DNA of 58,160 nucleotides from Gaiellaceae bacterium (lineage in GTDB: Bacteria > Actinomycetota > Thermoleophilia > Gaiellales > Gaiellaceae): positions 1-58,160 of the forward strand of contig DATLYP010000069.1 in assembly GCA_035574655.1 (NCBI GenBank), given 5' to 3'. How positions within the stretch are numbered: position 1 is the first letter of the stretch; each line of letters opens with the position of its first letter. Shown here piece after piece: positions 4,285-20,599 of this stretch. The position numbers and the translations under genes were made by a program. The notes beneath the pieces are model-generated. The model was given only the letters and a program-made list of their open reading frames with translations. It was not told the DNA's origin and did no database searches.

Positions 4285-4293
4285 GCGGCGAGG

Positions 4294-4836: not shown

Positions 4837-4864
4837 GGCACGAGGAGGACGAGGAGCTTCGGAA

Positions 4865-6064: not shown

Positions 6065-6479
6065 GTGCGAATGGCTCGAGCGCCCGTGGCACTGGGTCGC
6101 GAACCGAGTTCTCGAACTCACGTATACGGCGTGGGACGTGCAACCCTTCGCGCTCGCGCTGGACTACTCCGGGTCGCCATTCCAGTGGGTTGCCGAGCGC
6201 CGGGCGCGGCTCCGGGCCGAGCTCGACGCAGCGTTCTTCCATCTCTACGGACTCGAGCGCGACGACGTCGACTACGTCATGGACACCTTCCCGATCGTCC
6301 GCCGCAAAGACGAGAAGGCGTACGGCGAATACCGGACGAAGCGCCTGATCCTCGAGATCTACGCCGAGCTGGCGGAGGCGATCGCCACTGGCCGGCCGTA
6401 CCAGACCCGCCTCGATCCCCCGCCTGCCGACCCCCGCGTCGCCCACCCACCCCGCACGATCCACGCAGTGAGCCCGTAG
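6060..6479 (+). pseudogene. C-terminal remnant of an N6-adenine DNA methyltransferase / type IIG RM enzyme (YeeA/Eco57I-like tail)
   Basis: The frame of ORF 6138..6479 stays open back to 6030 and reads ...[98 protein letters not shown] recognise this tail from large RM/BREX/DISARM-type methylases. There is no N-terminal methylase body and no plausible start. Confidence 0.6.
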
Positions 6480-7106
6480 GTGGCCGGCAAGCCGAGGTAC
6501 ACGAAGTCGTTCCAACGGCTTAGAAGGAATCTCAGTCGTGGGCGCACGCTGCTGGACAAGTTCTTTGACAACCCCGGCGGCACGCGGCGTGGTTCCGGTC
6601 AACCCGCGGCTCACGAGCAGGAACTCCTGCGGTCGGTTCTGGTTCTGGGGATCGGAGCGCTCGATGCGTACCTGTCGGAGCTCGTCGTTGAGTTGATGCC
6701 CAAGCTTGCGGCTGCCGGGAAGGCGCAGATGATCTTCGAGAGGCTGATGAAGGACAACGCGGGACTCATTCTCCAAGCCGTCTACCTCGGCCGGGAGGCC
6801 CTTGACGCTGCGCTTTCCTCAGCGGTCGAGTTGCAGTTCCAGAGCTCCGTCATGCATGGTTCCAAGGCGGTGCGACAGGTGTACGACTGGTGCGCTCTGG
6901 GTCTCGGATTCGATGACTTCAACACCGAGCGCTTCCCTCAGGCGATGAAGCTCCTCGATGAGTGGACCGACAAGCGTCACCGAATCGTCCACCGCGGCGA
7001 GCTCGTCAAGATGAGGCGCCAAGACGCGACTGACGTCCTCGACCTTGTCGAGTCGATCGGGAAGACGCTCAACGATCGAGCCCTACGAACACCGGAGGCG
7101 ACGTGA
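6480..7106 (+). CDS. HEPN-domain protein (RiboL-PSP-HEPN-like)
   Basis: 208-aa ORF with an Rx4H motif R166-HRIV-H171 (KRHRIVHRG, nt 6975-6992) near the C-terminus. It is predicted helical. It overlaps the GmrSD-like gene by 4 nt (GTGA). Confidence 0.55.
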   Translation: MAGKPRYTKSFQRLRRNLSRGRTLLDKFFDNPGGTRRGSGQPAAHEQELLRSVLVLGIGALDAYLSELVVELMPKLAAAGKAQMIFERLMKDNAGLILQAVYLGREALDAALSSAVELQFQSSVMHGSKAVRQVYDWCALGLGFDDFNTERFPQAMKLLDEWTDKRHRIVHRGELVKMRRQDATDVLDLVESIGKTLNDRALRTPEAT

Positions 7107-9415
7107 GCGGCACGGTCTTCAAGAAGGTCGACTACGGGCTGAACACGCTCGTCGACAGCATCGAGCTCGGCGAGATCGGCCTTCCCGATCTCCAGCGCCC
7201 GTTCGTCTGGGACAGCGTCAAAGTTCGAGATCTCTTCGACTTCATGTATCGCGGGTACCCGGTCGGCCACCTTCTCTTCTGGGAGAGCGGCGCTGAACCG
7301 GGGGCGCGCCAGATCGGTGCTTCGGCCAAGCAGCTCGCACCGCGGCTCCTCATCGTCGACGGCCAGCAACGGCTCACGTCGCTCTTCGCAGTCATGAAAC
7401 AGAAGCCGGTAGTCACGAAGGACTACGCGACACGGCGGATCCAGATCGCATTTCGGCCGCGCGACGCGACGTTTGCCGTCGCGGACGCGACGACGGCGAA
7501 GGATCCCGCGTTTCTCGCGGACATCGGCGAGATCTGGGCGCGTCCCGTCTACCAAGTCATCACGGAGTTCCTGGAACGGCTACGTGAAGCTGGCGGGCTC
7601 GGCGGGCACGACGAGGAGGTCATCCCCGCCGCGCTTGGCCGGCTCGAGGGGCTGAAGTCGTATCCGTTTACCGCCCTCGTGCTCGGCGCGGACATCGACG
7701 AAGAGCGGGTCGCGGAGGTGTTCGTCCGTGTCAACTCCCAGGGCAAGAACCTGAACCAGGCGGACTTCATCCTCACGCTCATGAGCGTGTTTTGGGACGA
7801 GGGCCGGGCCGAGCTCGAGCAGTGGTCGCGGGACGTCCGTGCTCCCGGGGACCCGGCTCACAACGCATACATCGCCCCGGATCCAGATCAGCTTCTGCGC
7901 GTCGCGATCGCGCTCGGGTTCAGGAGAGGGCGGCTCGAGGACGCGTACTCGGTACTTCGCGGAAGAGACCGTGCCACCGGGAAGGTCTCACCGGAGCTCC
8001 GCGAGAAGCAGTTCGCGCGGCTGGAGGCGGCACAGGACAAGGTCCTCGACAAGGAGGTCTGGAAGGAGTACCTACAGTGCCTGCTCCGTGCGGGGCATCG
8101 ATCGTCGGCGACGATCAGCTCGAACCTCGCGATCCTCTACTCGTACGCCTTCTACCTCATCGGCAAGCACGACTACGGAGTGCCGTGGAAGCAGCTTCGC
8201 GAGGTGATCGCACGGTGGTTCTTCATGAGCTCGCTCACGGCGCGGTACTCGGCCAGTCCCGAGACGACGGTCGCCGCGGATCTCGCGTCGCTTCCCGCCG
8301 ACGGCGGCGCTGGAGGGTTTATCGCCCGGCTGGACGAGATGATCGCCCAGCGACTTACGAACGACTACTGGGAGATCACGCTCCCAGGCGACCTGGCAAC
8401 GTCCGCGAGCCGCTCCCCGTCGCTCTTCGCCTACCTGGCGGCACTCAACATCCTCGACGCGCCCGTTCTCTTCTCGAAGATGCGTGTCGCGGAGCTCTTC
8501 GACCCCGCGCTCGCCGGAGGGTGGGTCAAGGTCCAACGGCATCACCTCTTTCCACGGAAGTACCTGGAAGGCTTGGGAATCACCGATCTCAAGCAGGTCA
8601 ACCAGATCGCGAACCTGGCCGTGCTCGAGTGGCACGACAACCTGTCGATCTCCGCGACCGACCCCACCGTGTACTGGCCGGCCTATCTCGATGCGATGCG
8701 CAATCCGCCGGGCGGGATGGCGCCGTTCACCGAGCCCGAGATCGAGTCGATGCTCCATCTCCACGCGCTGCCGGAGGGGTGGCCGGAGATGCCGTTCGAC
8801 GAGTTCCTCGCTGAGCGTCGCCGGCTGATGGCCGGTGTAATCCGGGAGGCGTACGAGCGCCTTGTGCACGGCGTACCCGACGCGGTCACGACGGTCTCAT
8901 GGCCGCCCTCGCCCGCTGCAGTCGAGCACCTTCTGCATGCGGGGGAGACGACTGGAGTCGAGCTGAAGTCCTCGCTCCGGGCGGACACGCTGAACCGAGG
9001 GGTTCCGCCGAAGGTGATCGAGAAGGTCGTCGCCCGAACCGTCGCGGGGTTCATGAACGCCCACGGCGGTGTGCTCGTGATCGGAGTCGACGACGACGGC
9101 AACCCCCTCGGGCTCGAGCGTGATCTCGCCACGCTGGGCCGCAAGGATCTCGACGGTTTCCAGCAGGCACTCATCGGAGTCCTGTCCTCGTACCTCGGTA
9201 CAGATGTCGCGGCAAGCGTCCGCGTGCACCTGACCAAGGTCGGCCCAGGCGGCCACGACGTCGCACTCGTCGACTGTCCTGCGTATGGAAAGCCGGTCTT
9301 CCTGGGCGATGGCCAGGGCAAGGAGTTCCACGTCCGCGCCGGGAACACGACTCGGCTCATGGACGTCGAGGAGGCTGCGACCTACACTCGCCAGCATTGG
9401 AAGACGCCGGCGTAG
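7103..9415 (+). CDS. GmrSD-family type IV restriction enzyme (DUF262 + DUF1524 His-Me nuclease) fused to a C-terminal AlbA_2/Schlafen-like domain
   Basis: DUF262 motif LLIVDGQQRLTSLF (aa 82-95). DUF1524-type motif VQRHHLFPRKYL...NQIANLAVLEWHDNLSIS (aa 477-516). The C-terminal aa ~612-770 read GVELKSSLR...VIEKVVARTVAGFMNAHGGVLVIGVDDDGNPLGLERD, typical of the AlbA_2 (divergent AAA_4) domain. Confidence 0.8.
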   Translation: MSGTVFKKVDYGLNTLVDSIELGEIGLPDLQRPFVWDSVKVRDLFDFMYRGYPVGHLLFWESGAEPGARQIGASAKQLAPRLLIVDGQQRLTSLFAVMKQKPVVTKDYATRRIQIAFRPRDATFAVADATTAKDPAFLADIGEIWARPVYQVITEFLERLREAGGLGGHDEEVIPAALGRLEGLKSYPFTALVLGADIDEERVAEVFVRVNSQGKNLNQADFILTLMSVFWDEGRAELEQWSRDVRAPGDPAHNAYIAPDPDQLLRVAIALGFRRGRLEDAYSVLRGRDRATGKVSPELREKQFARLEAAQDKVLDKEVWKEYLQCLLRAGHRSSATISSNLAILYSYAFYLIGKHDYGVPWKQLREVIARWFFMSSLTARYSASPETTVAADLASLPADGGAGGFIARLDEMIAQRLTNDYWEITLPGDLATSASRSPSLFAYLAALNILDAPVLFSKMRVAELFDPALAGGWVKVQRHHLFPRKYLEGLGITDLKQVNQIANLAVLEWHDNLSISATDPTVYWPAYLDAMRNPPGGMAPFTEPEIESMLHLHALPEGWPEMPFDEFLAERRRLMAGVIREAYERLVHGVPDAVTTVSWPPSPAAVEHLLHAGETTGVELKSSLRADTLNRGVPPKVIEKVVARTVAGFMNAHGGVLVIGVDDDGNPLGLERDLATLGRKDLDGFQQALIGVLSSYLGTDVAASVRVHLTKVGPGGHDVALVDCPAYGKPVFLGDGQGKEFHVRAGNTTRLMDVEEAATYTRQHWKTPA

Positions 9416-9466
9416 CGGCGATCTCACGCTCAATGAAGCTCGGCTGGGTGGCGATATCTCCGCAAG

Positions 9467-12400
9467 ATGGTTGACCGAGGTCTCGAAGCGCTGGAGTGCC
9501 CCGAGTGCGGCGGGCCGATGGAGGTCAGGCGCGCTCGTCGCGGACGCAATGCCGGAGGGCTCTTCTGGGGGTGCATGGACTACCCCAACTGTCGCGGAAC
9601 GCGCGACTACGAGGTGGCGGAGCCCCACGGGGTCGGCGCCGACGGCGAGGGCGTCGGGCCGCGGCCGGACTGTCCCCGAGGTCACGGGCCGATGGTTCTC
9701 AAGCTGGCGCGACGCGGCAGGAACGCCGGGCGGGCGTTCTGGTCGTGCTCGATCTATCCGACGTGTAACGAGACGGTAGACGCCGAGGAAGGCATGGCCG
9801 CACACGCCGATGCGCGACGCCCGTCCGCGTCGTCGCGGCGCTCGGTGCAGTGGGTCGATCGGACGCTCGACCGGCATGGATGGACGTGCCGCTACACCAC
9901 GGCTGGCGCGTCGCTTCGCGCGCTCGTTGGCTCGATCGAGCTTGGCGCGGAGGTCAGCCAGGCGTGGATCGCACGGAGCGAAGGCACGGCGTTCCCCCCC
10001 GAGCCTGTTCTGCGCGTCGTAGGCCTGTGTCGCAAGATTCTCCAGCGCGGGTCGGCTCCGCCGCTGGATCCGTTTGCCGAGCAAGCCCTGCTCGAGCGTA
10101 TAGGACTCGGCGACGAGCTCGAGTCGGCGCCCTTGCCGGGTGATCTGAGCAAGCGGCTTCGCAACCCACCACGCATCGATGCGCTCGCCGGTGTGATCGG
10201 CTCGGGCGCAGCGGAACTGCGGCTCGACCCGGGCCTCGAGCTCGACTCGGAGGAAGAGCGGCTTGCCCTGGAGGCTTTGGTGGCGGAGGCAGGCCCCGAG
10301 GTCGCGCGGTGGCTTGTTCCTCAGCCCTCTCTCGAGGCACTGATCGGCTCGGCGGAGCCGTTCGGCCGCCGCGTCGACCTGCTCGTAGCCGCGCCTTGGA
10401 GCGATCCGTTCGTGCTCGAGATCGACGGGAGCCAGCACGCGAGCTCCACAGCCGTCGACGACGATCGAGACGACGCACTCCGCGCCGCCGGACTCCCAGT
10501 CCACCGCGTCCCCGCCGACGCTGTGCGCAACCGCGAGCGACTTTGGCTCGACGAGGTTCGGGCCAGGCTCCCTCGACGTCAGCCTCAACGGGACAGCCGT
10601 GCGTCAGACCTCGTCTATGGCCCGGCACAGGTGCACCGGTTCGCTCTCGCCGTGCTCGAGGCTCTCGGCGCGGGGCACCTCTCGGGCACTCGCTGGGTGA
10701 TCGATGTCCGCGACGACCTCGATCTTCTCGGCGACGACCTGGTCTCGCCGTACTTCGGGCTGATTGCGGCCGTCGACTCTCTCTGGGCGGGAACCGTCGC
10801 GCCTGACGAAGTCGTTCTCGGGGTCAACGGTCGGTGGCGTCTTCTGCGCAGGCAGGGCATCACCTTCGAGGCTGTCGGTACAGCATCCCCCGAGCCCGCG
10901 ATGGTGGTGATCCACCTTGAGGCCGGACGAAGCGCGATCGAGGAGCTCCCTGCTCTCGGAGAGGTGCCTGCAGTGGTGGTGCGGAGCGCGTTCCTTCCGG
11001 CACGAATCGCTGATCCGGTCTACGAGGGGTCGAGACGCGCGGTCGTTCAGACGGAAGGGGAGGAGATCGAGAAGGCACTGGTCTTCCTGTTGCGGTCGAT
11101 CTTCGCGAAGGAGGACTTCCGCGAAGGCCAGCTCGATGCGCTGTTGGAGGTCGTCGAAGGGCGAGACTGCGTTGTTCTTCTTCCGACCGGTGCTGGCAAG
11201 AGTCTCATCTACCAACTTGCCGGCCTGTGTCTCCCTGGCCGCACGTTGATCGTGGATCCGCTGGTGTCGCTGATGGAGGATCAGGTCGAGGGGCTGGCGG
11301 TACACGGCGTCGATCGGGTCGCCCTGATCAGCTCCTACTTGGTTCGGCAAGGGCTTCGAGCGAGGATCCTCGACGAGATCAGCTCCGGCGAAGCGCTCTT
11401 TGTCTTCGTCTCTCCGGAGCGTTTGCAGCAGCCGGAGTTTCGCTCGACTCTTCGCGCGCTTGCGCAGACGAGCCCAATCAACATCGCAGTTGTCGACGAG
11501 GCGCATTGCGTGTCCGAGTGGGGACACGACTTCCGGACGGCGTACCTCAACGTCGCTCGCGTGCTGCGCGAGGTCTGTCGCGACGCCGACGGAGTTCCGC
11601 CGCCACTCCTCGCGCTCACCGGCACCGCGTCGCGTGCGGTCTTGAGGGACGTGTTGATCGAGCTGGGGATCGAGCGGAACTCGGAGCGGGCCGTCGTCCG
11701 TCCGCGGTCGTTCGACCGTCCGGAGCTGCGATACACGGTTCAGCGCGTAGATCCCTCGGAAGCTGCGGCCGCGTTGGTCGGCTATCTCCGCTCCTTGCCG
11801 TCGAAGTTCGGCGTGCCTGCGACGGACTTCTTCCGCGCGCGCGGCGACCGGACCTTCTCAGGTCTCGTCTTCTGCCCGAACGTCAACGGCCGAGCTGGTG
11901 TCGTCGAGGTCTCCGAAGCGCTTCGGGGCGTCCTGGGAGTGCCGCCTCCGATCTACAGCGGCTCGACGGCACCGAAAGGGATGGACTCGGGGGACTGGGA
12001 GTCCGCCAAGCGGCGCAACGCGAACGCCTTCAAGCGCAACGAGGCACCGCTGCTCGTCTCGACGAAAGCGTTCGGGATGGGGATCGACAAGCCGAACATC
12101 CGCTACGTCGTGCACTTCGGGATCCCGGGGTCGATCGAGGGGTACTACCAGGAGGTCGGCCGCGGGGGCCGGGATCGCCAGCGCGCCGAATGCGGACTGT
12201 TCCTGGTCGAGTACGACGAGCGACGAGCCCGCGAGCTGCTGGACGACGAGGCTGATCTCGAGAAGGCGCGTGCTGATCACGAGGCGATCACCTGGGCTGA
12301 GGCCGACGACATCTCGGGCCAGCTCTACTTCCATCTCCGCGCGTTCTCGGGAGTCGACGAAGAGGCCGCCGTACTCGATGACGTGCTCGAGGAGCTTGGC

Positions 12401-13363
12401 GAGATCTCTCGCCGCCGTACGGTCGAGATTCCAATGGGAGACGACGACGATGCACGCGAGCGCGCGCTTCACCGGCTGGTCGTTCTGGGAGTGGTTCAGG
12501 ACTACCTCGTCGAGTGGGGCTCCAAGAAGTTCGTTGTCGAGGTGCGCGGGGTCGGCTCGGACGACGTCGTCGATTCGTTGTTGCGATACGTGGGCCGGAA
12601 CCAGCCCGGACGCGTGGAGACCATCGCCGCACACGCGGCGCCGTGTCGGCTGATGGACGCAAGTGAGGCGGCCGAGGGTTGCGGCCGGATCCTGATCGAG
12701 TTCGTCTACGACACCGTGGAACGGTCGCGCAGGCGGAGCCTGCGGGAGATGTGGCTCGCCGCACGCGAGAGCGGCGGAGACGCCAACGTCACGTTCAGAC
12801 AGCGGATTCTCGACTATCTCTCCGAGGGCGACATCAGTCCGACGCTCGAGCGGCTCGTGGACGCCCCGCGATTCCGGTACTCCGAGTGGCAGGAGGAGCT
12901 CTCGAAGCTCCTCGGCACCGACGAGGCGCGCGAGCTTCGCGGCAACACGGCGCGCCTGCTCAGCTCGTATCCCGACCACCCCGGGATGCTCCTCGCGCGT
13001 GGATTCAGCGAGCTCGCGGACGACCGCGGGAACCTCTCCGAGCTCGTTTCCTCTCTGGAGACGTCTGTTGCGAGCTCGGTGGCCAGATACGCGAGCACCG
13101 AGTCGGAGCTCGAGGAGCTCTTCTCTTGGCTGCTCGAGGAGGCCGATCGCCGCCGTCGGCCCGCCGCGCGGACCGCCGTGGTCTCAGTGGCGCTGAGGTT
13201 CGATGCGCTTGTACCGATCGGAACTCGGGAGCTGGAGCGCGCTCTCGACGCTCCGGATCGTGCCGAACCAGGACTTCTCGTGCTTGCGCTCGCCGATGCG
13301 CTCGATAGAACCGCGTCGCACGTTGAAGCGCTGCTGTCAGAGACGGAAGGAGTTCTCGGATGA
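9467..13363 (+). CDS. Large RecQ-family SF2 helicase (1298 aa) with two N-terminal topoisomerase-type Zn ribbons and a Vsr/DUF559-like endonuclease-fold module
   Basis: Zn ribbons: CPECGGPMEV..FWGCMDYPNC (aa 11-42) and CPRGHGPMVL..FWSCSIYPTC (aa 69-100). DUF559-like segment: RRVDLLVAAPWSDPFVLEIDGSQH..DDDRDDALRAAGLPVHRV (aa 301-348). RecQ core: LLPTGAGKSLIYQ, VVDEAHCVSEWGHDFR, LTGTAS, FGMGIDKPNIRYVVHFGIPGSIEGYYQEVGRGGRD. Confidence 0.8.
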   Translation: MVDRGLEALECPECGGPMEVRRARRGRNAGGLFWGCMDYPNCRGTRDYEVAEPHGVGADGEGVGPRPDCPRGHGPMVLKLARRGRNAGRAFWSCSIYPTCNETVDAEEGMAAHADARRPSASSRRSVQWVDRTLDRHGWTCRYTTAGASLRALVGSIELGAEVSQAWIARSEGTAFPPEPVLRVVGLCRKILQRGSAPPLDPFAEQALLERIGLGDELESAPLPGDLSKRLRNPPRIDALAGVIGSGAAELRLDPGLELDSEEERLALEALVAEAGPEVARWLVPQPSLEALIGSAEPFGRRVDLLVAAPWSDPFVLEIDGSQHASSTAVDDDRDDALRAAGLPVHRVPADAVRNRERLWLDEVRARLPRRQPQRDSRASDLVYGPAQVHRFALAVLEALGAGHLSGTRWVIDVRDDLDLLGDDLVSPYFGLIAAVDSLWAGTVAPDEVVLGVNGRWRLLRRQGITFEAVGTASPEPAMVVIHLEAGRSAIEELPALGEVPAVVVRSAFLPARIADPVYEGSRRAVVQTEGEEIEKALVFLLRSIFAKEDFREGQLDALLEVVEGRDCVVLLPTGAGKSLIYQLAGLCLPGRTLIVDPLVSLMEDQVEGLAVHGVDRVALISSYLVRQGLRARILDEISSGEALFVFVSPERLQQPEFRSTLRALAQTSPINIAVVDEAHCVSEWGHDFRTAYLNVARVLREVCRDADGVPPPLLALTGTASRAVLRDVLIELGIERNSERAVVRPRSFDRPELRYTVQRVDPSEAAAALVGYLRSLPSKFGVPATDFFRARGDRTFSGLVFCPNVNGRAGVVEVSEALRGVLGVPPPIYSGSTAPKGMDSGDWESAKRRNANAFKRNEAPLLVSTKAFGMGIDKPNIRYVVHFGIPGSIEGYYQEVGRGGRDRQRAECGLFLVEYDERRARELLDDEADLEKARADHEAITWAEADDISGQLYFHLRAFSGVDEEAAVLDDVLEELGEISRRRTVEIPMGDDDDARERALHRLVVLGVVQDYLVEWGSKKFVVEVRGVGSDDVVDSLLRYVGRNQPGRVETIAAHAAPCRLMDASEAAEGCGRILIEFVYDTVERSRRRSLREMWLAARESGGDANVTFRQRILDYLSEGDISPTLERLVDAPRFRYSEWQEELSKLLGTDEARELRGNTARLLSSYPDHPGMLLARGFSELADDRGNLSELVSSLETSVASSVARYASTESELEELFSWLLEEADRRRRPAARTAVVSVALRFDALVPIGTRELERALDAPDRAEPGLLVLALADALDRTASHVEALLSETEGVLG

Positions 13364-13815
13364 GTGAGAGCGAAGACGGGTTGACGCTCGACGCCGTCGT
13401 CAAGAGGTTTGCGGATTCCGAGCGGGCACTCGGCGAAGTGCGTGAGAGGCTGACGGCGCTGGCGGCGTCTGCGACGGAAGCGAACGCTTCAGCAGCGTCC
13501 CTCCGGGAGACCGCGGACTCGGTGCGTGAGTTCGCGCAGCGCGCCGCCATGGTTACCGACGAGCTTCGCGAGGTAACTGCGCAGGCTCGCGGAGTGCTCG
13601 AGCGTGGCGCCGCTGTGCTCGACGGAAGCGCTCTCCGCGCGATTGAGCAGCGGCTCGTGGAAGTGGTTGGTGAGCTCCGAGAGGCGCATACCTCCATGGC
13701 GGGTTCGCTGCACGAGATCGAGGCGCGCGTCACGCGCATCGACGCCGGCGCCGCTCGGATTTTCAAGAACACACTTCCCCGGCGCCAGCGGAATCTGGAG
13801 TACCCGGGCGAGTGA
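13360..13815 (+). CDS. Coiled-coil hypothetical protein (151 aa)
   Basis: The ATG overlaps the RecQ-like stop (ATGA). The sequence is Ala/Glu/Arg/Leu heptad-like throughout (EVRERLTALAASATEANASAASLRETADSVREFAQRAAMVTDELREVTAQARG). No catalytic motif was seen. Confidence 0.5.
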   Translation: MSESEDGLTLDAVVKRFADSERALGEVRERLTALAASATEANASAASLRETADSVREFAQRAAMVTDELREVTAQARGVLERGAAVLDGSALRAIEQRLVEVVGELREAHTSMAGSLHEIEARVTRIDAGAARIFKNTLPRRQRNLEYPGE

Positions 13816-13817
13816 GC

Positions 13818-14309
13818 ATGAGCTACCTCCTGCCGATCGCCGACCGCGAGCCGCTCGTCTGGATCCTCCGCGAGCAGCGAACCGCCTTCGGCGAGAACCG
13901 CGCCCGCGACGCGCGGGCGCTCGAGGTCGGGGACGTCCTTTACCTGTACACGACCCGCGGCTGCTTCCGGAACCCGACCCGCGATCGCGGGCGCATCATC
14001 GGGCGCGCGACCGTCAAGAACCGCGCGAATGAGGTGCGCACCCCGCCGACCTTCGGCGGGCGCGAGTACCCGTACGTGGTCGAGCTCGAGATCGAGACGC
14101 TCGCCCCGCTCCGCCACGGCCTCGAGCTCGCCCCGCTCGTCCCGCGCCTCCCGCGCACCTTTCCCGACGCGAGGACGTGGAGCGTTCGCCTGCGCCGGGC
14201 CTTGGTGCCGCTCGACGAGCGCGACGCGGCCGAGATCGAGCGCCGGCTGGACGAGGAGGTCGCGCCGTACCCCGAGGCGCTGCCCTCGTACGGCGCCGCC
14301 GCCCGGTGA
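13818..14309 (+). CDS. EVE/PUA-like (ASCH-superfamily-like) small protein
   Basis: MSYLLPIADREPLVWILREQRTAFGENRARDARALEVGDVLYLYTTRG...RGRIIGRATV...YVVELEIETLAPL fits the EVE-type pattern (N-terminal beta strand, GD-hyd-hyd-hyd-Y, G-x-hyd-x-G). It starts 2 nt after the previous stop; an alternative GTG start lies at 13812. Confidence 0.5.
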   Translation: MSYLLPIADREPLVWILREQRTAFGENRARDARALEVGDVLYLYTTRGCFRNPTRDRGRIIGRATVKNRANEVRTPPTFGGREYPYVVELEIETLAPLRHGLELAPLVPRLPRTFPDARTWSVRLRRALVPLDERDAAEIERRLDEEVAPYPEALPSYGAAAR

Positions 14310-14373
14310 TCGACGCCCGCCGGCAGACGGCGCCGAGGCGGGTCGCGCTCCGGCGCTGCAAGCCGAAAGCGGC

Positions 14374-17300
14374 GTGAGCTCGACCTGGAGCGGGCCGTCC
14401 ACGCTCGCGGCGACGACGCTCGCGCAGTTCGTCCGCCTCGAGTCGTGCGAGCGCTACCTCTGGTACCGGCTGCACGCCAAGGAGACGCGCGACCTCTTCC
14501 GGCGCTACCGCGTCACCGAGCAGCCGCTGACGCCTCTCCTCAGCCAGCGAGGCGCTCGCCACGAGTCCGAGATCACGACCCAGCTCGCCGCCGAGGGCCG
14601 CGAGCTCGTCGACCTCGCCGAGCAGGGCGCGGACCGGACCGCGGCCGAGCTCGCCCGCGGCGCCACCTCCGCCCGCGTGCTCCTGCAGGCGAGGGTCGAA
14701 GGGACGATCGGGGCCTTCCCCGCGGCGGGGGTCGCCGACCTCGTCCTCGTCGAGCCGGGGAGCGAGGGCGGCGTCCGGGTCACCGTGGGCGACGCGAAGG
14801 CGAGCCGCCGCGACCGGCCCGAGCACCGCCTCCAGGTCGCGTTCTACGCCCTCCTCCTCCGCCAGCTCGCCGCCCGCGCCGGCGTCCACATCGAGGAGAT
14901 GCGCGGCTGCGTCTGGCGGGTCCCGCAGGGGCCGGAGGACGAGCAGCCGTCCCTCTTCGACCTCCAAGCCTACGAGGAGGCCGTCGAGCTCCTCGCGGGC
15001 GAGGGAAGCCGGCTCCTCCCCGTGGCGGCCGGATCCCGCGAGCAGGCGCGCTTCCACCTCACCTACAAGTGCGACGGCTGCCTCTACAACGCGCTCTGCA
15101 TGCGGGAGGCGGCGGAGGGGGAGACGCTGGCGCTCGTCCCCTTCCTCTCCAGCCGCGACCGGACCGCGCTCGAGCGGCACGGCGTCCGCTCGCTCCTCGA
15201 CCTCGCCCGCCTCAAGGGCCTGCCGCCGCCCGGCGACTACGAGGCGCCGCTCGCTCCCGTGGCCGACCCGTCCCTGCTCGCGCGGCTCGCCGCCGAGTGG
15301 CCGCTCGGCGCGAACCTCGACCTGCACGTGCAGCGCGCCCGGGCCGTCGCGCGCAACTGGCACGCCGAGGTCGAGTGGCGCCCCTGGATCCACGGCTCGG
15401 GCTTCGGCACCCTCCCCGACCCGGAGGCGTTTCCCGGCCTCGTCCGCGTCTACCTGGACGCCCAGCACGACTTCCTCGAGGACCGCGTCTACCTCGCCGC
15501 CGGGCTCGTCGTCGGCCCCCGGGGCCGGCGCGAGGTGCTCGAGATCACGGACGGCCCTCCCGGAGAGGAGCAGGAGGGGAGGCTCGTCGAGGCCTGGGTG
15601 ACACGGCTCCTCGCCGCCGTGCGCGAGGTCGCCGACGGCGACACCCTCTACCTCCACCTGTACGTGTACGACGGCTACGACCAGAAGGTCGTCCTGGACG
15701 CGATCCGCCGCCACCTCGACCGGCTCGCGGGGCTTCCCGACGTCTTCGACCTCCTCACCGAGACGGCGGCGACCTCGCAGGCGATGTTCAGCTTCCTCGC
15801 CCGGGAGGTCCGGGAGCGCAAGAACCTCGGCCTCCTCTGCCACTCGCTCCCGCTCGTCGCGCGCCGGCTCGGCTTCGACTGGAGCTTCGAGGGCGTCGAG
15901 CTGCACCGCGTCTTCCAGGCGCGCGTGTTCGACAACCGCCGCACGCTTCCCGACGGGCGCTGGTACGAGAGCGCCGCGCGCTTCAACTCGCAGATCCCGC
16001 TCGAGTACGCCTACGGCGCCTGGGGGCGGCTTCCCGAGCCGGAGGACGCGGAGTCGCGGCGCCTGCTCGAGCCCTTCCGCGTGACGCTCGACGAGCTCCT
16101 CCACTTCGCGCGCGCCCGCCTGCACGCGCTCCACCACCTCGACGAGTCGTTCCGCGTGCGCAACCGCTTCCTGCCGAAGGAGCCGATCCGCCTCCCCGAC
16201 CCCCGCGTCGCGAGCGGCGCCGAGCCGCGGCTCGCCGATGTCCTCCTCGAGTTCCTGTACGTCGAGCACCACGCCAAGCTGCAGGGGCTCCTCTCGCTCT
16301 TCGCCCTGCCGCTCGAGCGGCGGGTGGCGAGCGGCGCCTCCCTCCTCCTCGAGGCGCTCGAGGACGCAGATCGCGGGCGCTGCCGCTTCCGCATCCGCTT
16401 CGACTTGGCCGGCCTCGACCCGGTGCCCGCGCTCCAGCAGATGGCGCCCGAGGAAGGCGACTGGATGGTGATCGGGCCCGCGCGCGCGTCGGCGAAGCCG
16501 TGGGACGTGGTGCGCGGGCGGATCGCCGTCATCGACGCGATCGAGGACGACGAGATCGTCCTCCACCTGATGCCGATGTCGTTCGGGAGGAGCGAGTTCC
16601 GGTTCGCGCACAACGCCTCGCTCGCCATCGCGCGCGGCGCCCTGTACGTGCTCGACCCGATGGCGGACGACCTCGTCGCCGAGCGCGTGCTCGACGCCTG
16701 CCGAAACGCCGACCACAACGCGTTCCTCGCCTGGATCGAGCGCGGGCCGGAGGCGATCGGCAGCCGCGGGGTCTCGGCCGCGGAGCGGCAGGCGCTCGGC
16801 GCGTTCCTCGAGGCGCTCGAGCAGGCGGCGAGCATCCTGACTCCCACCCAGCGGCAGGGGGACGTGATCGCCCACCGCTCGCGCGAGCGGGTCCTGCTCG
16901 TGCAGGGGCCGCCCGGTACCGGCAAGACGCACACGCTCGCGTGGGCCATCCTCGCCAGGGCGTATGCGGCGGCGCTCGCCGGGAGGTCGTTCCACGTGCT
17001 CGTCAGCGCGATGACTCACACCGCAGTCGAGGTCGTGCTTCGCTCGATTGCGGACAAGCTCGGGCAGCTCGACCAGGAGCCTGCGGCCGCGCACCTCGCG
17101 GAGGCGCTCTCGGGGCTTCGGCTCTTCAAGGAGCAGTCGGTTCCCGGCCCGGTGCCCGAGGGGGTGGAGGCGGTCGAGCGGGACGACCTGCTCGAGTGCT
17201 TGGAGCACGAGCTGGCGGTGATCGCGGCAGTGCCGTCGGGCGTGCACCGGCTGCTGCAGGGGGTGTCGAAGCCGATCGACTGGAGCCGCAGGCGGTTCGA

Positions 17301-18219
17301 CCTGCTCGTGATCGACGAGGCCTCGCAGCTCAGCCTGCCGGCGGCGGTGCTCGCGGGCGCGCCCCTGCGCGACGAGGGGCAGGCGATCGTGGTCGGCGAC
17401 CACCGGCAGATGCCGCCGATCCTCACGCACGACTGGAAGCACGAGCCGCGCCGCCGCGCCCAGGAGACGAACGTCTACGCCTCCGCCTTCGAGTCCCTGC
17501 GCGACCGGGGGTTCCCGATCGTCGGCCTCGACCAGTCCTTCCGCCTGCACCGCGAGCACGCGGCGTTCCTCGAGCACCACGTCTATCGCGAGGACAACGT
17601 GGGGTTCCACTCGCTGCGCGCGGAGCTCCTGCCGTCCTGCGCGGGGCTCGACGGGCACGTCGCGGCGGCGCTCGCCCCCGAGTTCCCGGTCGTCGTGGTC
17701 GAGCACGCGGAGCAGAGCTCGCTCAAGCGCAACGACACGGAGATCGCGATCCTCGCGCCCATCGTCGAGGCGGCGCGCGACAGGCTCGGGCTGGACGCGA
17801 CGGACGGCCTCGGCGTCGTCGTCCCCCATCGGGCCCAGCGGGCGGCGCTCAAGGCGCTCTTCCCCGACCTCGCGGGCGCAGGGGCGATCGACACCGTCGA
17901 GCGCTTCCAGGGCGGGGAGCGCGACCTGATCGTCGTCTCGGCGACCGCCTCCGACCCCGAGTTCGTGCTCGCCGAGGCGCGCTTCCTGCTCAACCCGAAC
18001 CGGCTCAACGTCGCCTTCTCCCGGCCCCGCAAGAAACTGATCGTGATCGGCTCGACGACCGTCTTCCGGCTCGTCCCGCCCGACATGGAGGTGTTCGAGA
18101 GCGCGCTCCTCTGGAAGCGCCTGCGCTACGAGTTCTCCGCCGAGGTGCTGTGGGAAGGGGAGGTCGCAGGCGTCCCGGTGCGGGTCAGCGGTCGCCGCGC
18201 GCTTCGCCCGTCGCGGTGA
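14374..18219 (+). CDS. Nuclease-helicase (1281 aa): Cas4/RecB-like PD-(D/E)xK Fe-S nuclease (TM0106 type) + RNaseH-like region + SF1B (AAA_11/AAA_12, Upf1/DNA2-like) helicase
   Basis: Nuclease motifs: ESCERY (first Cys), VADLVLVE, VGDAKASRR, LQVAFYALLL, then YKCDGCLYNALC. Helicase motifs: LLVQGPPGTGKTHT, LLVIDEASQL, VVGDHRQMPPI, TVERFQGGERDLIVVS, RLNVAFSRPRKKLIVIG. The GTG start is chosen at the first in-frame start after the previous gene. The upstream part of ORF 14029..18219 overlaps the EVE-like gene. Confidence 0.8.
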   Translation: MSSTWSGPSTLAATTLAQFVRLESCERYLWYRLHAKETRDLFRRYRVTEQPLTPLLSQRGARHESEITTQLAAEGRELVDLAEQGADRTAAELARGATSARVLLQARVEGTIGAFPAAGVADLVLVEPGSEGGVRVTVGDAKASRRDRPEHRLQVAFYALLLRQLAARAGVHIEEMRGCVWRVPQGPEDEQPSLFDLQAYEEAVELLAGEGSRLLPVAAGSREQARFHLTYKCDGCLYNALCMREAAEGETLALVPFLSSRDRTALERHGVRSLLDLARLKGLPPPGDYEAPLAPVADPSLLARLAAEWPLGANLDLHVQRARAVARNWHAEVEWRPWIHGSGFGTLPDPEAFPGLVRVYLDAQHDFLEDRVYLAAGLVVGPRGRREVLEITDGPPGEEQEGRLVEAWVTRLLAAVREVADGDTLYLHLYVYDGYDQKVVLDAIRRHLDRLAGLPDVFDLLTETAATSQAMFSFLAREVRERKNLGLLCHSLPLVARRLGFDWSFEGVELHRVFQARVFDNRRTLPDGRWYESAARFNSQIPLEYAYGAWGRLPEPEDAESRRLLEPFRVTLDELLHFARARLHALHHLDESFRVRNRFLPKEPIRLPDPRVASGAEPRLADVLLEFLYVEHHAKLQGLLSLFALPLERRVASGASLLLEALEDADRGRCRFRIRFDLAGLDPVPALQQMAPEEGDWMVIGPARASAKPWDVVRGRIAVIDAIEDDEIVLHLMPMSFGRSEFRFAHNASLAIARGALYVLDPMADDLVAERVLDACRNADHNAFLAWIERGPEAIGSRGVSAAERQALGAFLEALEQAASILTPTQRQGDVIAHRSRERVLLVQGPPGTGKTHTLAWAILARAYAAALAGRSFHVLVSAMTHTAVEVVLRSIADKLGQLDQEPAAAHLAEALSGLRLFKEQSVPGPVPEGVEAVERDDLLECLEHELAVIAAVPSGVHRLLQGVSKPIDWSRRRFDLLVIDEASQLSLPAAVLAGAPLRDEGQAIVVGDHRQMPPILTHDWKHEPRRRAQETNVYASAFESLRDRGFPIVGLDQSFRLHREHAAFLEHHVYREDNVGFHSLRAELLPSCAGLDGHVAAALAPEFPVVVVEHAEQSSLKRNDTEIAILAPIVEAARDRLGLDATDGLGVVVPHRAQRAALKALFPDLAGAGAIDTVERFQGGERDLIVVSATASDPEFVLAEARFLLNPNRLNVAFSRPRKKLIVIGSTTVFRLVPPDMEVFESALLWKRLRYEFSAEVLWEGEVAGVPVRVSGRRALRPSR

Positions 18220-18298
18220 CGGCTGCTCCGGCCGAGCAAGCGCTTCGGGTCGACATCGCTCGCGGTTGGCGCTGTAACTCCGGCTCGTGCCCGCGCAC

Positions 18299-18337
18299 TA
18301 CCTGTTGCCGATCGTCGACCGCGAGCCGCCCGGCTGA
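18299..18337 (+). pseudogene. 5' remnant of a second EVE-like gene (12 codons, then stop)
   Basis: tac ctg ttg ccg atc gtc gac cgc gag ccg ccc encodes YLLPIVDREPP. It matches codons 3-13 of the EVE-like gene (13824-13856, YLLPIADREPL) at 29 of 33 nt. It has no start codon, and its TGA overlaps the ATG of the next gene. Confidence 0.45.
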
Positions 18338-19077
18338 TGCCGATCGATGTGGGCGCCCACCTCGAGAGCCTGGTCGGCCAGGAGATCCGAACGCTGACGG
18401 AAAGACAGCCGAACCGGATACTCCGAATCGAGGGGGGCGACGTCATCGTCGGCACTCGAAGGTCGCCAGGCGGCCGGCCGGTGCCGATCCAGTGGCTCCA
18501 GGATGCCGTCGACCTCCTCGAGGAGCGAGGAGAGATACCGGTCGACGTCGAGACCCTCGGTCACCGTGGGGCCTTCGTCGGTGCGTTCCTGGCGACCCTC
18601 CCAGGGGCAATCGTCCGGCCGACCACGCCGCGGCGCGTTGCGCTGGCACGCGAGCCGAGGATCGACGAGCGGCTCGAGGAAGTCAGACGGCTCGTACACG
18701 AGCACCTGAACGCGGCGATGATCATGGTCCCGCTCGACGATCCCCTCGACCCCGAGATGCCGATCGCGGATGCACTCGCGTACCTCGACGAGAACGAGTT
18801 CGACTTGGCGTTACTGCGAAGCGAGGACCTGAGGGTGGTGTACAGACGGCGACTCGCAACCGTCCCCGAGGTGCACCGGCACGAGCCGGTCAAGACGAGA
18901 TGGTCGAGTCCGCGCGGCGATCGACTCGTACAGCACACCTTGGAGCTCGGCGAGGTCGCAAGGAGGCTACGAGACGACGATGTTCCGCTACTCGTCGTCG
19001 GTAGAGCAGGGCCTGAGTTCATCATCACTCGGTCCGACTTCACGCGGCCCGCCGGCCTTGTGGGCGTCTTAGCGTGA
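18337..19077 (+). CDS. Hypothetical protein with unassigned N-terminal domain and C-terminal CBS-pair-like domain
   Basis: The C-terminal half shows two CBS-like units: AAMIMVPLDDPLDPEMPIADALAYLDENEFDLALL, and DRLVQHTLELGEVARRL..DDVPLLVVGRAGPEFIITRSDFTR. The stop overlaps the next GTG start (GTGA). Confidence 0.55.
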   Translation: MPIDVGAHLESLVGQEIRTLTERQPNRILRIEGGDVIVGTRRSPGGRPVPIQWLQDAVDLLEERGEIPVDVETLGHRGAFVGAFLATLPGAIVRPTTPRRVALAREPRIDERLEEVRRLVHEHLNAAMIMVPLDDPLDPEMPIADALAYLDENEFDLALLRSEDLRVVYRRRLATVPEVHRHEPVKTRWSSPRGDRLVQHTLELGEVARRLRDDDVPLLVVGRAGPEFIITRSDFTRPAGLVGVLA

Positions 19078-19445
19078 TCGCAGCGCTTGATGCGCAGCTC
19101 GACGAGCTGCTTCACCCCTTCGACCAGGAGGCGTGGGCGGTGCTCCCCGAGGAGACGCGAACGAGGCTCGAGCAAGACGTCGAGTGCGCGCGGCAGCGCT
19201 CGGAGGAAGTCCATCGCCTGAGCTACCTGACGCTCCGCGAGCGGCTCTTCGTCGTCCAAGCGCTCGAGCTCGGGCGGCGACTCGGGATCGACTTCGGCAC
19301 GCAGGCCGAAGACGAGCGCATCGTCAGCGTCCGCAACGACATCGCACACGGGAGGCCCGTACGCAGTGGTGCGGACGTCATCGACGCGCTCGCGGCCGCA
19401 GAGCGGATCCTCGACTCGATCCGGGAGGCGCTCGGTCGATCGTGA
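19074..19445 (+). CDS. HEPN-domain protein (Swt1-like type), 123 aa
   Basis: Canonical Rx4H motif VRNDIAHG (R87-H92, nt 19332-19349) lies in an all-helical small protein. It overlaps the CBS-pair gene by 4 nt. Confidence 0.65.
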   Translation: MIAALDAQLDELLHPFDQEAWAVLPEETRTRLEQDVECARQRSEEVHRLSYLTLRERLFVVQALELGRRLGIDFGTQAEDERIVSVRNDIAHGRPVRSGADVIDALAAAERILDSIREALGRS

Positions 19446-19531
19446 CCGGATCTCGGTCATCGGCGTGACGGTCATGTCGCTTCCGCCGATCGTCCTCCGC
19501 CGAGCCCAGCGAGCGTCCCGCTTCGCTTAGG

Positions 19532-19813
19532 ACGATCGAGGTCGAGATCTTCCGCGACGACGACGAGGGTTACCTCACGTGGATTGCCGCGCATCCCCGC
19601 GGCTTCGTCTTGAACGCGGAGCGGAGCCCTCGCCCTGGCTACCTCATCCTCCATCGGGCGACCTGCCGCACGATCACCACGCAGCCGAGTCGAGGCGGTC
19701 CCTGGACCGGGCCGTACATCAAGATCTGCTCGGACGACGAGTTGCGGATCGCGGCCTGGGCCGGGCATGCGGTCGGCGGCGTTCCGACGCGCTGCGGCGT
19801 CTGCCTGCGGCCG
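19532..19813 (+). pseudogene. Small conserved Cys-containing domain ORF lacking a canonical start and stop
   Basis: The frame reads TIEVEIFRDDDEGYLTWIAAHPRGFVLNAERSPRPGYLILHRATCRTITT..WTGPYIKICSDDELRIAAWA..PTRCGVCLRP. I recall this as a stand-alone small actinobacterial protein. There is no ATG/GTG/TTG between the in-frame stop at 19466-19468 and the TTG at 19610. The codon where M is expected is ACG (19532). The frame runs on, without a stop, into the NYN gene. Confidence 0.35.
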
Positions 19814-19996
19814 CAGTGGCTCGTCTCTCCGTGGCGGCCCGCCCGAGGGGATCTACCGCGGTATAGGCATCCTCCCGGTTGGAGCCCTGTCCGTGGTAGC
19901 CGTCTTGATCGGCGACGCGATTCGGGCATACTTGGACCGCATTGCTCCCCGCCGTCCGGCGCGAGCCGCACTGGCGGGGTTCTTCTTTGCTCCGGG

Positions 19997-20599
19997 ATGT
20001 CTGCGGAAGAGCGCACGCGCGTAGCCGTCTTCATCGACTGGCAGAACACGTGGCACGCGGCTCGGGAGGCGTTCGGGTGGACCGCGTTCCCGAACGAGTA
20101 CGGCAACTACAGCCCGCTCAGGCTCGCGGAGTTCGTGGCCGAGGGGAACGGGCGCGGAGCGCTCGGTCAGGTCGTGCGCGTGAATATCCATCGCGGGCTG
20201 CCATCGAACAAGCGTGATCCTCAGGGCTACGGGGCGGTACGTCGTCAGGCTCAGGCCTGGATCGCTGAGAACCCGGACGTGGTCGTGCCGAAGCTTCGCC
20301 CGCTGAGGTACTACGGGCCGGAGGCCGAGCCGCGCGAGAAGGGGATCGACGTTGAGATGGCGATCGAGGCCGTTCGTTTTGTTCTCGAGGGCCGCTGCGA
20401 TGTCGCCGTCCTCTTCAGCCACGACACCGACCTCGTTCCGGCGATCGACGCGATCGCAGCGCTCGTCGAGACCGTCTCGTGGGTCGCTCCGGGCTTCCCG
20501 CGGAGGCTCCGTGTGCGGCGCCGTATCTACCACCACGAGCTCGACGAGAACCACTTCGCATGGGTAGAGGACCGCGTGAACTACGCGTACAGGGGCTGA
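19997..20599 (+). CDS. NYN-domain (LabA-like PIN-fold) ribonuclease
   Basis: Internal ATG (aa 130) of ORF 19610..20599. RVAVFIDWQNTWHAAREAF and GIDVEMAIEAVRFVLEGRCDVAVLFSHDTDLVPAIDAI match the NYN acidic-residue pattern. Confidence 0.7.
   Translation: MSAEERTRVAVFIDWQNTWHAAREAFGWTAFPNEYGNYSPLRLAEFVAEGNGRGALGQVVRVNIHRGLPSNKRDPQGYGAVRRQAQAWIAENPDVVVPKLRPLRYYGPEAEPREKGIDVEMAIEAVRFVLEGRCDVAVLFSHDTDLVPAIDAIAALVETVSWVAPGFPRRLRVRRRIYHHELDENHFAWVEDRVNYAYRG

Follow-up and report, generated by a model that had tools for sequence, protein, structure and literature searches.

Four closely packed genes, called g1 to g4 in order, lie on the + strand at positions 9467–18219 of a 58,160-nucleotide (nt) stretch of DNA from a Gaiellaceae bacterium (contig DATLYP010000069.1 of assembly GCA_035574655.1), which we refer to as the window. 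Based on the folds and motifs of the encoded proteins, the statistics of gene pairing, and the mosaicism of the locus, all of which are directly observed, we favor the view that these genes comprise at least three separate defense-type modules that were joined by recombination and that possibly act in synergy. The first module pairs a nuclease fused to a RecQ-type helicase (g1) with a small coiled-coil protein (g2), the second is a stand-alone protein with a predicted EVE-type fold (g3), and the third is a Dna2-like nuclease-helicase (g4). Obligatory co-function of the three modules seems improbable. The positions of all features are listed in Table 1.

Gene order and mosaicism of the g1–g4 array

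The four genes are packed as in an operon. The stop codon of g1 and the start codon of g2 share an ATGA overlap (13360–13363), a 2-nt gap (13816–13817) separates g2 from the ATG start of g3 (the alternative GTG start at 13812 would overlap the g2 stop codon), and 64 nt lie between g3 and the start of g4 at 14374. The frames of all four genes exhibit the G+C profile across codon positions (GC1 > GC2 < GC3) that is the pattern of real genes at the ~73% G+C of the window. Three competing gene models were rejected because their codon-position G+C is wrong: the long open reading frames (ORFs) 14014–17829 (−) and 14445–19004 (+), and a 1396-amino-acid (aa) extension of g4 from 14029.

A preliminary description of this DNA, made from the sequence alone, had reported the same ORF positions, overlap, and gaps, had placed them in a defense island with GmrSD-type and HEPN/NYN genes, and had interpreted the four genes as one undescribed defense system. 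The ORF layout agrees with ours, and the defense-island setting is recovered by Pfam matches. However, nothing in the sequence marks a four-gene boundary. The array continues on either side: about ten same-strand genes span ~16 kb (~4865–20599), each overlapping the next or separated from it by no more than 164 nt. There is no terminator-like site between 4000 and 19500, and the first terminator-like hairpin on the + strand is found at 19586.

Base composition partitions the array at other places. The G+C content at third codon positions (GC3) is 0.79 for g1 and 0.76 for g2, and rises to 0.96 for g3 and 0.97 for g4. The low values extend upstream, such that a HEPN gene, a GmrSD gene, g1, and g2 form a block with GC3 of 0.76–0.84, and a lower-G+C stretch is located at roughly 4–14 kb. 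Downstream of g4, the gene called p18337 has a GC3 of 0.80 and the HEPN gene that follows it 0.85, compared to ~0.95–0.98 for native flanking genes. When calculated over 40 codons at a time, the GC3 of g3 and g4 never falls below 0.85, and the switches are located at the g2/g3 junction and in the spacer between g4 and p18337.

Gene order in related loci (given L numbers, or named as contigs by their length in base pairs [bp]) is equally variable. The window carries g1, g2, g3, g4, p18337, and HEPN in this order. On the 18004-bp contig the order is g1, g2, g3, a p18337-like gene, and g4; on the 22532-bp contig it is g1, g2, a p18337-like gene, and g4; in L102 it is g1, g2, p18337, HEPN, and g4; and in L092–94 it is g1, g2, and g4, without g3. 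Sequence identity to L102 is 73% for g1, 64% for g2, and ~56% for g4, and the corresponding values for L092 are 66%, 44%, and 74% (g4 is also 74% identical to its counterpart in L091). These discordant identities of g1 and g4, together with the GC3 switches and the varying order, imply that the window is a mosaic.

The simplest reading of these sequences is that a recombination hotspot lies downstream of an ARMADA-type methyltransferase gene, at which cassettes are exchanged. Such a methyltransferase gene is followed directly by g3 in L091 and by g1 in L092. Recombination at this hotspot would have placed the g1–g2 module beside g3 and g4, and any cooperation among the modules would be synergy between neighbors rather than the obligatory function of subunits. 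Homologs of the four genes also prove to be largely non-syntenic, an outcome that the preliminary description had itself named as arguing against one system. Specifically, g1, g2, or g4 occurs within 10 kb of a g3 homolog at none of the 80 loci fetched (with a 10-kb reach) from the 122 that carry g3 homologs in actinobacterial species-representative genomes.

One alternative is that g1 to g4, or a core of g1, g2, and g4 with g3 and p18337–HEPN as optional parts, form one multicomponent system in which the EVE protein senses modified DNA and the two motors, of opposite polarity, degrade it jointly in the manner of RecBCD or AddAB. All four genes do occur in the same order on the 18004-bp contig, g1–g2 precede g4 in every one of the five closest-clade contexts (the window, the contigs of 18004 and 22532 bp, L102, and L092–94), the small overlaps and gaps are uninterrupted by any terminator-like site, and g4 always abuts an upstream gene on the same strand. 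However, every component is also found apart from the others, g3 is absent from L092–94, and the genes that intervene between g2 and g4 vary. The GC3 step at g2/g3 and the discordant g1/g4 identities argue in the same direction, as does the presence of g4 after a CBS protein and a 466-aa helicase, after a SACS/NOV_C protein, or after an Mrr-type nuclease. We therefore consider a single system to be unlikely.

Several observations nevertheless weigh against our interpretation that the modules are separate. In the closest clade, in which g1 is at least 66% identical, g4 is no more than two genes downstream of g1–g2 in 5 of 5 visible contexts, and this proximity despite rearrangement and allele exchange could reflect selection for co-function. 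The 18004-bp contig has the same 2-nt g2/g3 junction, which suggests that the junction in the window is probably not recent and which is odd beside so sharp a GC3 step. Moreover, the operon-like spacing and the lack of terminator-like sites hold throughout 4000–19500, and the related contexts come mostly from short metagenomic contigs of one lineage, such that sampling is thin. A g1-like gene on Escherichia coli phage-plasmids is located among replication genes (DnaB, primase, ligase, and DprA). Finally, the enzymatic activities and targets of g1 to g4, and a defense role for any of the four genes, are predictions.

Neither PADLOC 2.0, whose use the preliminary description had proposed, nor NCBIfam 20 assigns the gene set to any named system. 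Both yield only partial, sub-threshold matches to helicase cores (DpdF, PsyrT, DpdJ, MkoA, PLuB, and Hhe), and none of PsyrTA/RqlHI, Dpd, Hhe, Nhi, Mokosh, PLuB, and ARMADA is represented with all the features that define it. What stands of the proposed four-gene system is that no library names the set and that the four-gene order recurs once, on the 18004-bp contig; its unity is not supported, as the modules occur apart. The locus is a clear case of cassette shuffling, and it illustrates how operon-like packing can mislead the calling of systems.

The g1–g2 nuclease-helicase pair

The domain contents read from the sequence in the preliminary description hold up well. The two Zn ribbons, Vsr/DUF559-like nuclease, RecQ core, and PTGAGKS motif proposed for g1 are confirmed by Pfam, NCBIfam, and profile searches, the coiled coil of g2 by its heptad periodicity, and the EVE/PUA fold of g3 by an AlphaFold2 model and Foldseek matches. 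Likewise, Pfam, Protein Data Bank (PDB), and fold matches identify in g4 the four-cysteine Cas4/RecB-like nuclease, the RNase H-like segment, and the superfamily 1B (SF1B) Upf1/DNA2-like helicase.

The g1 protein matches Zn_ribbon_Top1 twice (53.8 bits versus a Pfam cutoff of 32) and carries a DEAD/Helicase_C core. The DUF559 match is weak in g1 itself (Pfam, E = 4.7e-4) but above threshold in its orthologs (27–46 bits), and a profile of the g1 family matches the DUF559 structure 3hrl (E = 1.6e-7). The same profile matches E. coli RecQ (1oyw, 1.4e-83), although the core alone aligns: g1 is without the Zn-binding, RQC, and HRDC parts of RecQ. Its Walker A motif PTGAGKS is encoded at nt 11183–11203. 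In an alignment of six sequences from three phyla (Actinomycetota, Rhodothermota, and an E. coli plasmid sequence), residues D304, E318-x-D320-G, Q323-H324, and R334-D335 are invariant and all RecQ motifs are retained. At least 150 clusters (50% identity) from several phyla match g1 over nearly its full length. A search of a phage collection returned only RecQ- or superfamily 1 (SF1)-core matches, with no sign of g1 or g4 as phage genes, and for g1 the matches in deposited phage genomes were to the RecQ core only. An IMG/VR scan with the g1 alignment recovered 80 loci, of which L103–L105 are g1-like and the remainder are generic RecQ cores.

The g2 protein is rich in Ala, Glu, and Arg, is amphipathic, and has a heptad periodicity of z = 3.6 relative to shuffled sequences. 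It matches no family above noise in Pfam, PADLOC, or NCBIfam, where it hits only coiled-coil segments of ZorA, JetC, and DndD. The g2 family is rare, with 14 clusters among 5.8 billion proteins, and a metagenome-contig scan with the g2 alignment produced four short loci only. A g1 ortholog is located directly upstream of the g2 relative in all nine contexts with readable upstream sequence, namely the window, the contigs of 18004, 23901, and 22532 bp from JGI 3300056388, L102, L092–94, L006, L007, and L008. Overlap of the two ORFs is the rule in these contexts, and in the others they abut. Two of the four scan loci, the short contigs L009 and L010, have a g2-like ORF that is only distantly related (36% identity) and is not preceded by g1. 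This strict coupling of g2 to g1 suggests that g2 is a stoichiometric regulator or adaptor. The pair occurs without g3 or g4 in Solirubrobacter (L006) and on contig L007, both with relatives of g2, and it is directly preceded by a GmrSD gene in the window, in L102, and on the 22532-bp contig.

Outside Actinomycetota, g1-like genes likewise overlap a small helical ORF (137–202 aa) in the absence of g3 and g4. These cases are a Rhodothermus plasmid (L099), IncFIB phage-plasmids of E. coli and Klebsiella (L100), and a prophage-like locus (L103) in which the module is located at one end of the prophage, with serine recombinase and endolysin genes as neighbors. Profile comparison (hhalign) of these small proteins with the g2 family gave probabilities below 1%, i.e., no detectable homology. 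As judged from their sequences, they are positional and compositional analogs of g2 rather than demonstrable homologs. All three (L099 8301–8909, L100 8304–8792, and L103 9639–10052) are coiled coils that end in a hydrophobic, transmembrane-like helix, a predicted tail anchor that has no counterpart in the actinobacterial g2 family. In L100 (E. coli plasmid pLAO18, NZ_OP242248.1 29008–43017), the genes for DprA, a 1558-aa protein with HAD, DUF559, and RecQ parts, and a 162-aa protein overlap one another, and the genes around these three on the ~110-kb IncFIB phage-plasmid encode DnaB, primase, and ligase. Among 5426 complete E. coli genomes, 7 carry this module, which occurs in both plasmid-borne and integrated form.

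Neither PADLOC 2.0 nor NCBIfam 20 contains a named system to which the g1–g2 pair corresponds, and we regard the pair as a candidate for a new two-gene nuclease-helicase defense. What would be new is an unnamed, widespread pair, whereas defenses that combine nuclease and helicase are of a kind already known. One possibility, which we raise tentatively, is that g1–g2 represents an undescribed, widespread anti-phage/anti-plasmid system whose coiled-coil partner is soluble in Actinomycetota but carries a membrane tail anchor in Rhodothermota, in Enterobacteria, and in a prophage, and which in a Gaiellales-like lineage acts in synergy with g4 and sometimes with an EVE reader.

Zn ribbons of the Top1 type bind DNA, RecQ-type superfamily 2 (SF2) motors translocate in the 3′–5′ direction, and DUF559/Vsr-fold domains are PD-(D/E)xK endonucleases. 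In a conserved, translationally coupled pair of this composition, the Zn ribbons and helicase of g1 would load onto DNA that is invading or being replicated and would track along it, and nicking or cutting would fall to the Vsr-like domain of the same polypeptide. The g2 protein would bind g1 as a regulator, dimerizer, or sensor, and its positional equivalent in other phyla would be anchored in the membrane. The most economical model for g1–g2, we infer, is one protein that both tracks and cuts DNA and that a coiled-coil partner holds or targets. If validated, the pair would extend the DNA-degrading defenses to a nuclease-helicase that has a RecQ motor and whose coiled-coil partner is in some cases anchored in the membrane. 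The family includes the E. coli phage-plasmid version, which is directly testable.

Among known proteins, DpdF provides the best PADLOC matches to g1 (1.7e-88 over the core). DpdF resembles g1 in having a core without RQC and HRDC parts, and the DpdF model PDLC02868 aligns with g1 residues 541–1207, including the C-terminal extension. However, g1 adds Zn ribbons, a DUF559 nuclease, and a dedicated coiled-coil partner, and it was rejected as DpdF proper because it scores 169.9 bits versus a cutoff of 550 for the NCBIfam equivalog NF041063. Pfam scans of the window ORFs also revealed no dpdA/TGT, dpdB–C, or 7-deazaguanine synthesis genes.

PsyrTA/RqlHI shares a RecQ-like core with g1 (PADLOC PsyrT, 5.7e-65, g1 residues 539–742) and is likewise a two-gene operon with a partner. 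In the E. coli phage-plasmids, a DprA gene even directly precedes the g1-like gene. The partner of g1 in the window is instead a downstream coiled coil and not a DprA-like protein: no DNA_processg_A match is found among the genes from 4865 to 26633, and the neighbors of g1 are the GmrSD_N gene and g2. Both the toxicity of RqlH and its binding of RqlI require a phosphoribosyltransferase (PRTase) domain at the C terminus (PMC4670107). The g1 protein was rejected as PsyrT/RqlH because it has no PRTase Pfam match at E ≤ 0.1 and its C-terminal 360 aa align with a DpdF-type extension.

The g1 and g4 proteins share the logic of Hhe and Nhi, in which a single polypeptide encoded in defense islands joins a nuclease to a processive helicase. 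A Vsr-type nuclease accompanies the helicase in Hhe as it does in g1, and the difference lies in the motor, which is an SF2 RecQ-type helicase in g1 rather than one of SF1. Assignment to Hhe itself (a DUF4011 helicase plus Vsr) was rejected for both large proteins, with NCBIfam Hhe_antiphage scoring 36.3 bits for g4 versus a cutoff of 2000 and giving no match to g1; the PADLOC Hhe match to g4 covers the helicase C-terminal region only (8.4e-9). The g1 protein is related to DpdF and would work like the Hhe-type nuclease-helicases.

The EVE-type protein g3 and the Dna2-like enzyme g4

The AlphaFold2 model of g3 has a predicted local distance difference test (pLDDT) score of 92.4. Its top Foldseek matches are PH1033 (template modeling score 0.72, E = 6e-8), MJECL36, the EVE-HNH enzyme VcaM4I, YTH domains, THYN1, and 2eve. 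From this model we predict with confidence that g3 adopts the β-barrel of the EVE/YTH-type PUA fold. The g3 sequence itself has no Pfam match, including to PF01878, and a few of its homologs carry PF01878. Residues W121, Y44, and F115 do not vary among family members. To judge by the predicted fold, g3 probably recognizes a modified base, either in DNA or in RNA.

The g3 family is well conserved, with 342 matches. Homologs of g3 are found near McrBC/AAA_5 genes, type IIG or PglX-like methyltransferases, RAMA proteins, SMC-like ATPases, and GmrSD, and also near kinases, UvrD, pPIWI-RE, or a pair consisting of a 291-aa protein and a PIN protein. An ARMADA-type methyltransferase is present within 10 kb in 23 of the 80 loci. 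In six loci (L016, L035, L037, L075, L077, and L091), g3 directly follows the PglX-like methyltransferase of a YprA-like/SNF2 array. This array matches ARMADA type I, which consists of a YprA-like helicase, a BrxHII-like helicase, and a PglX-like methyltransferase (bioRxiv 10.1101/2025.09.15.676423). Intact arrays of this type occur in these six loci and in L092, whereas the window lacks the full set and retains only a 3′ remnant of the methyltransferase gene. The ARMADA preprint (bioRxiv 10.1101/2025.09.15.676423) makes no mention of a stand-alone EVE accessory, and the link observed here (23/80 loci) suggests that a modified-base reader is an unrecognized accessory of this newly described system.

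Fusions of EVE domains to nucleases are established modification-dependent endonucleases (PMC7897488, PMC7641849). The g3 protein has the same fold as known EVE readers such as VcaM4I (EVE-HNH), THYN1, and the EVE-like N terminus of the DISARM class 1 protein DrmA, and it likewise occurs in restriction-type neighborhoods, as in the EVE census (PMC7641849). It differs from them in that it stands alone without a fused nuclease, and in that its commonest tight partner is the ARMADA-type PglX-like methyltransferase. In the window, g3 would be a stand-alone reader of a modified base that resembles a leftover of an ARMADA-type methyltransferase array. Several Thermoleophilia/Gaiellales contigs among L001–L005 (e.g., L004 8692–10519) carry a conserved cassette of a ~291–305-aa unknown protein, a PIN protein (135–137 aa), and, in third place, the EVE protein homologous to g3. 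The genes that follow this cassette are variable and include RelA_SpoT and DUF6308.

For g4, Pfam reports PDDEXK_1 (28.9 bits, cutoff 22) and AAA_11/AAA_12. The best PDB sequence match is DNA2 (6.8e-21), and the helicase is closest to DNA2 and Upf1. Among 35 homologs, C25, C233, and C242 are invariant and C236 is nearly so, and D122, K142, Q154, and Y158 are invariant. The N-terminal 820 aa, modeled with AlphaFold2 at a pLDDT of 89, give fold matches to RNase HI/PIWI as well as to the nucleases Cas4, Exo5, and AdnAB.

A distant paralog of g4 is encoded elsewhere in the window, at 23367–26633. This protein is a TM0106-family member (TIGR03491, 235.8 bits versus a cutoff of 97.45; PF13482, 1.2e-26) of native composition (GC3 0.98) whose gene is just upstream of carD (26968–27471). 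The g4 family aligns with it over 1020 columns (hhalign 99.7%, E = 4.8e-27) at an identity of 16%, and g4 itself scores 31.8 bits against TIGR03491, which is under the cutoff of 97.45. L004 and L005 carry a degraded remnant of a TM0106-type gene homologous to this paralog. The g4 protein shares the whole architecture of the TM0106-family proteins and differs in being located in restriction-modification and defense neighborhoods across phyla. With Dna2 it shares the order of a four-cysteine PD-(D/E)xK nuclease, for which iron-sulfur (Fe-S) binding is predicted, followed by an SF1B helicase.

Nhi is also a PD-(D/E)XK nuclease plus SF1B helicase, with structure predictions resembling Upf1 and Dna2 (bioRxiv 10.1101/776245), and g4 has the same N-terminal nuclease and helicase in one protein. 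The helicase of Nhi is of the DUF2075 type, whereas in g4 AAA_11/AAA_12 are combined with an RNase H-like domain and a Cas4-type nuclease for which Fe-S binding is predicted. No DUF2075/PF09848 match was found in g4, and no Nhi is among the PADLOC matches, where the inclusion of an Nhi model in PADLOC 2.0 was not verified. Other assignments were rejected as well. Matches to MkoA and MkoC of Mokosh cover only g4 residues 971–1237, and no PLD domain is present in g1 to g4. The best NCBIfam name for g4, PLuB (NF040671), for which no literature was found, reaches 135 bits versus a cutoff of 999, in the helicase part only. DpdJ, described as YprA-like (bioRxiv 10.1101/2025.09.15.676423), does not fit because g4 is without MZB/DUF1998. 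Within the TM0106-type superfamily, g4 is a remote member, and it would work like Dna2 and Nhi. It would act as an autonomous enzyme in which a Cas4-type Fe-S nuclease accompanied by an RNase H-like domain is threaded by a 5′–3′ SF1B motor, following the logic of Dna2, AddB, and Cas4, and would degrade foreign DNA ends or replication intermediates.

The distribution of g4 is consistent with autonomy. Orthologs with 74–78% identity occur without g1–g2 in L091, after the CBS protein and 466-aa helicase, and on the 23565-bp contig, after the SACS/NOV_C protein; in both, three genes separate g3 from g4. More distant relatives (40–46% identity) are also found without g1–g2 in L095–98 and L101. Those of L095–98 represent other phyla and lie beside type III-like restriction-modification and Mrr genes. 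Relatives at this level of identity also stand alone on a Chlorohelix plasmid or are found on haloarchaeal plasmids, and the array of one ortholog in another phylum also includes an ASCH (PUA-like) gene.

It is conceivable that g3 and g4 form a modification-dependent (Type IV-like) pair, in which the EVE protein recruits or licenses the Dna2-like enzyme and g1–g2 is an unrelated neighbor. The two genes are adjacent in the window, share native-like GC3 (0.96 and 0.97), and lie on the same contig in at least six cases (the window and the contigs of 18004, 70467 [L091], 23565, 8567, and 7467 bp, where co-location on the last two is read only from equal sizes in two match lists). The established EVE-nuclease fusions (PMC7897488, PMC7641849) and the ASCH gene near the g4 ortholog of another phylum are further points in favor of such a pair. 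In contrast, g4 is found at 0 of 80 g3 loci of species genomes, its orthologs in L092–94, L098, and L101 are without g3, and three genes intervene in L091 and the 23565-bp contig. With g3 directly following an ARMADA-type methyltransferase in six loci, we judge a dedicated g3–g4 pair to be rather doubtful, and again prefer to treat g3 and g4 as separate modules.

A different concern is that the two large genes encode housekeeping enzymes, or repair and recombination enzymes for the replication of mobile genetic elements (a RecQ paralog and a bacterial Dna2), rather than immunity proteins. The g1 protein is above the cutoff of the NCBIfam RecQ-family model (TIGR00614, 260 bits versus 219.8) and g4 resembles Dna2. 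Both g4 and its paralog have native composition, the paralog is beside carD, and the E. coli g1-like gene is surrounded by the DnaB, primase, DprA, and ligase genes of phage-plasmids. However, the distribution is patchy, as indicated by the few g2 clusters and the small number of E. coli genomes with the module noted above, and nearly every context includes GmrSD, HEPN, NYN, restriction-modification, ARMADA, or Abi neighbors. The composition of g1–g2 is foreign, g1 lacks the accessory parts of RecQ noted above, and the L103 module is located among prophage cargo. These features make a role in housekeeping or in the replication of mobile elements very unlikely, and separate defense-type modules remain the reading that we favor.

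Neighboring genes and remnants

Table 1. Positions of the genes, domains, and remnants discussed in the text (window coordinates unless a related locus is named)
Feature	Position	Strand	Description or basis
ARMADA-type PglX-like methyltransferase 3′ remnant	6030–6479	+	149-aa ORF, in-frame stops upstream
HEPN, RiboL-PSP type	6480–7106	+	Pfam, PADLOC HEC-05
GmrSD_N + Schlafen/AlbA_2	7103–9415	+	Pfam, PADLOC HEC-05; overlaps HEPN by 4 nt
g1	9467–13363	+	1298 aa, nuclease-helicase
g1 Zn ribbons	9494–9604 and 9668–9769	+	Zn_ribbon_Top1, Pfam
g1 DUF559/Vsr-like PD-(D/E)xK domain	~10364–10561	+	Family profile and conserved residues
g1 RecQ-type SF2 core	~11087–12256	+	NCBIfam, PDB profile
g1 DpdF-like C-terminal extension, 360 aa	12257–13360	+	PADLOC DpdF model alignment
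g2	13360–13815	+	151 aa, coiled coil
g3	13818 (ATG) or 13812 (GTG) to 14309	+	163 or 165 aa, EVE/YTH-type
g4	14374 (GTG)–18219	+	1281 aa, Dna2-like nuclease-helicase
g4 4-Cys Cas4/RecB-type PD-(D/E)xK nuclease	~14401–15123	+	Pfam, fold matches
g4 RNase H-like domain	~15439–16053	+	Fold matches
g4 SF1B (Upf1/Dna2-type) helicase	~16804–18123	+	AAA_11/AAA_12
p18337	from 18337	+	246 aa, overlaps next HEPN by 4 nt
HEPN, RiboL-PSP type	19074–19445	+	123 aa, after p18337
g4 distant paralog	23367–26633	+	1088 aa, TM0106-family RecB-like nuclease + RNase_H_2 + SF1B
g3 homolog in L016, L035, L037, L075, L077	~10001–10480 of each		After PglX-like methyltransferase
g3 homolog in L091	6864–7361		After PglX-like methyltransferase

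The methyltransferase remnant is 71% identical to residues 1183–1301 of the L092 enzyme (1310 aa), 66% identical to that of L091, and 50% identical to that of L016. As far as these matches indicate, a YprA/BrxHII/PglX array was formerly located here. The remnant overlaps the end of an ORF for a 552-aa DEAD helicase (4865–6523), the last ~120 codons of which have a GC3 of 0.40–0.47; this end of the ORF is probably not coding.

The upstream HEPN and GmrSD genes share the low-GC3 block of g1–g2. The L102 homolog of the GmrSD_N + AlbA_2 protein is 80% identical and its gene is also directly before g1. In the window this protein has no GmrSD_C (HNH) domain, and on the 22532-bp contig a 213-aa gene precedes a GmrSD_N + GmrSD_C gene upstream of g1.

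No match to p18337 was found in Pfam, PADLOC, NCBIfam, or the PDB. In L102, g2 is separated from g4 by homologs of p18337 and its HEPN neighbor (9238–10336; identities of 70% and ~73%), and shorter p18337-like ORFs follow g2 or g3 on the 22532- and 18004-bp contigs and in L091. The p18337–HEPN pair accompanies g1–g2 and g4 on other contigs in varying positions relative to g2, g3, and g4, and may constitute a toxin-type module of its own.

Pfam scans of the other ORFs in the window revealed housekeeping families outside the defense genes. Near the end of the array, residues 1–66 encoded by the ORF with the NYN domain, at 19610–20599 (+), are 85% identical to the C-terminal end of the DUF6308 gene that follows the g3 homolog in L004 and L005 (L004 11363–11560). 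This match suggests that the ORF in the window is a chimera or carries a remnant of a DUF6308 gene.

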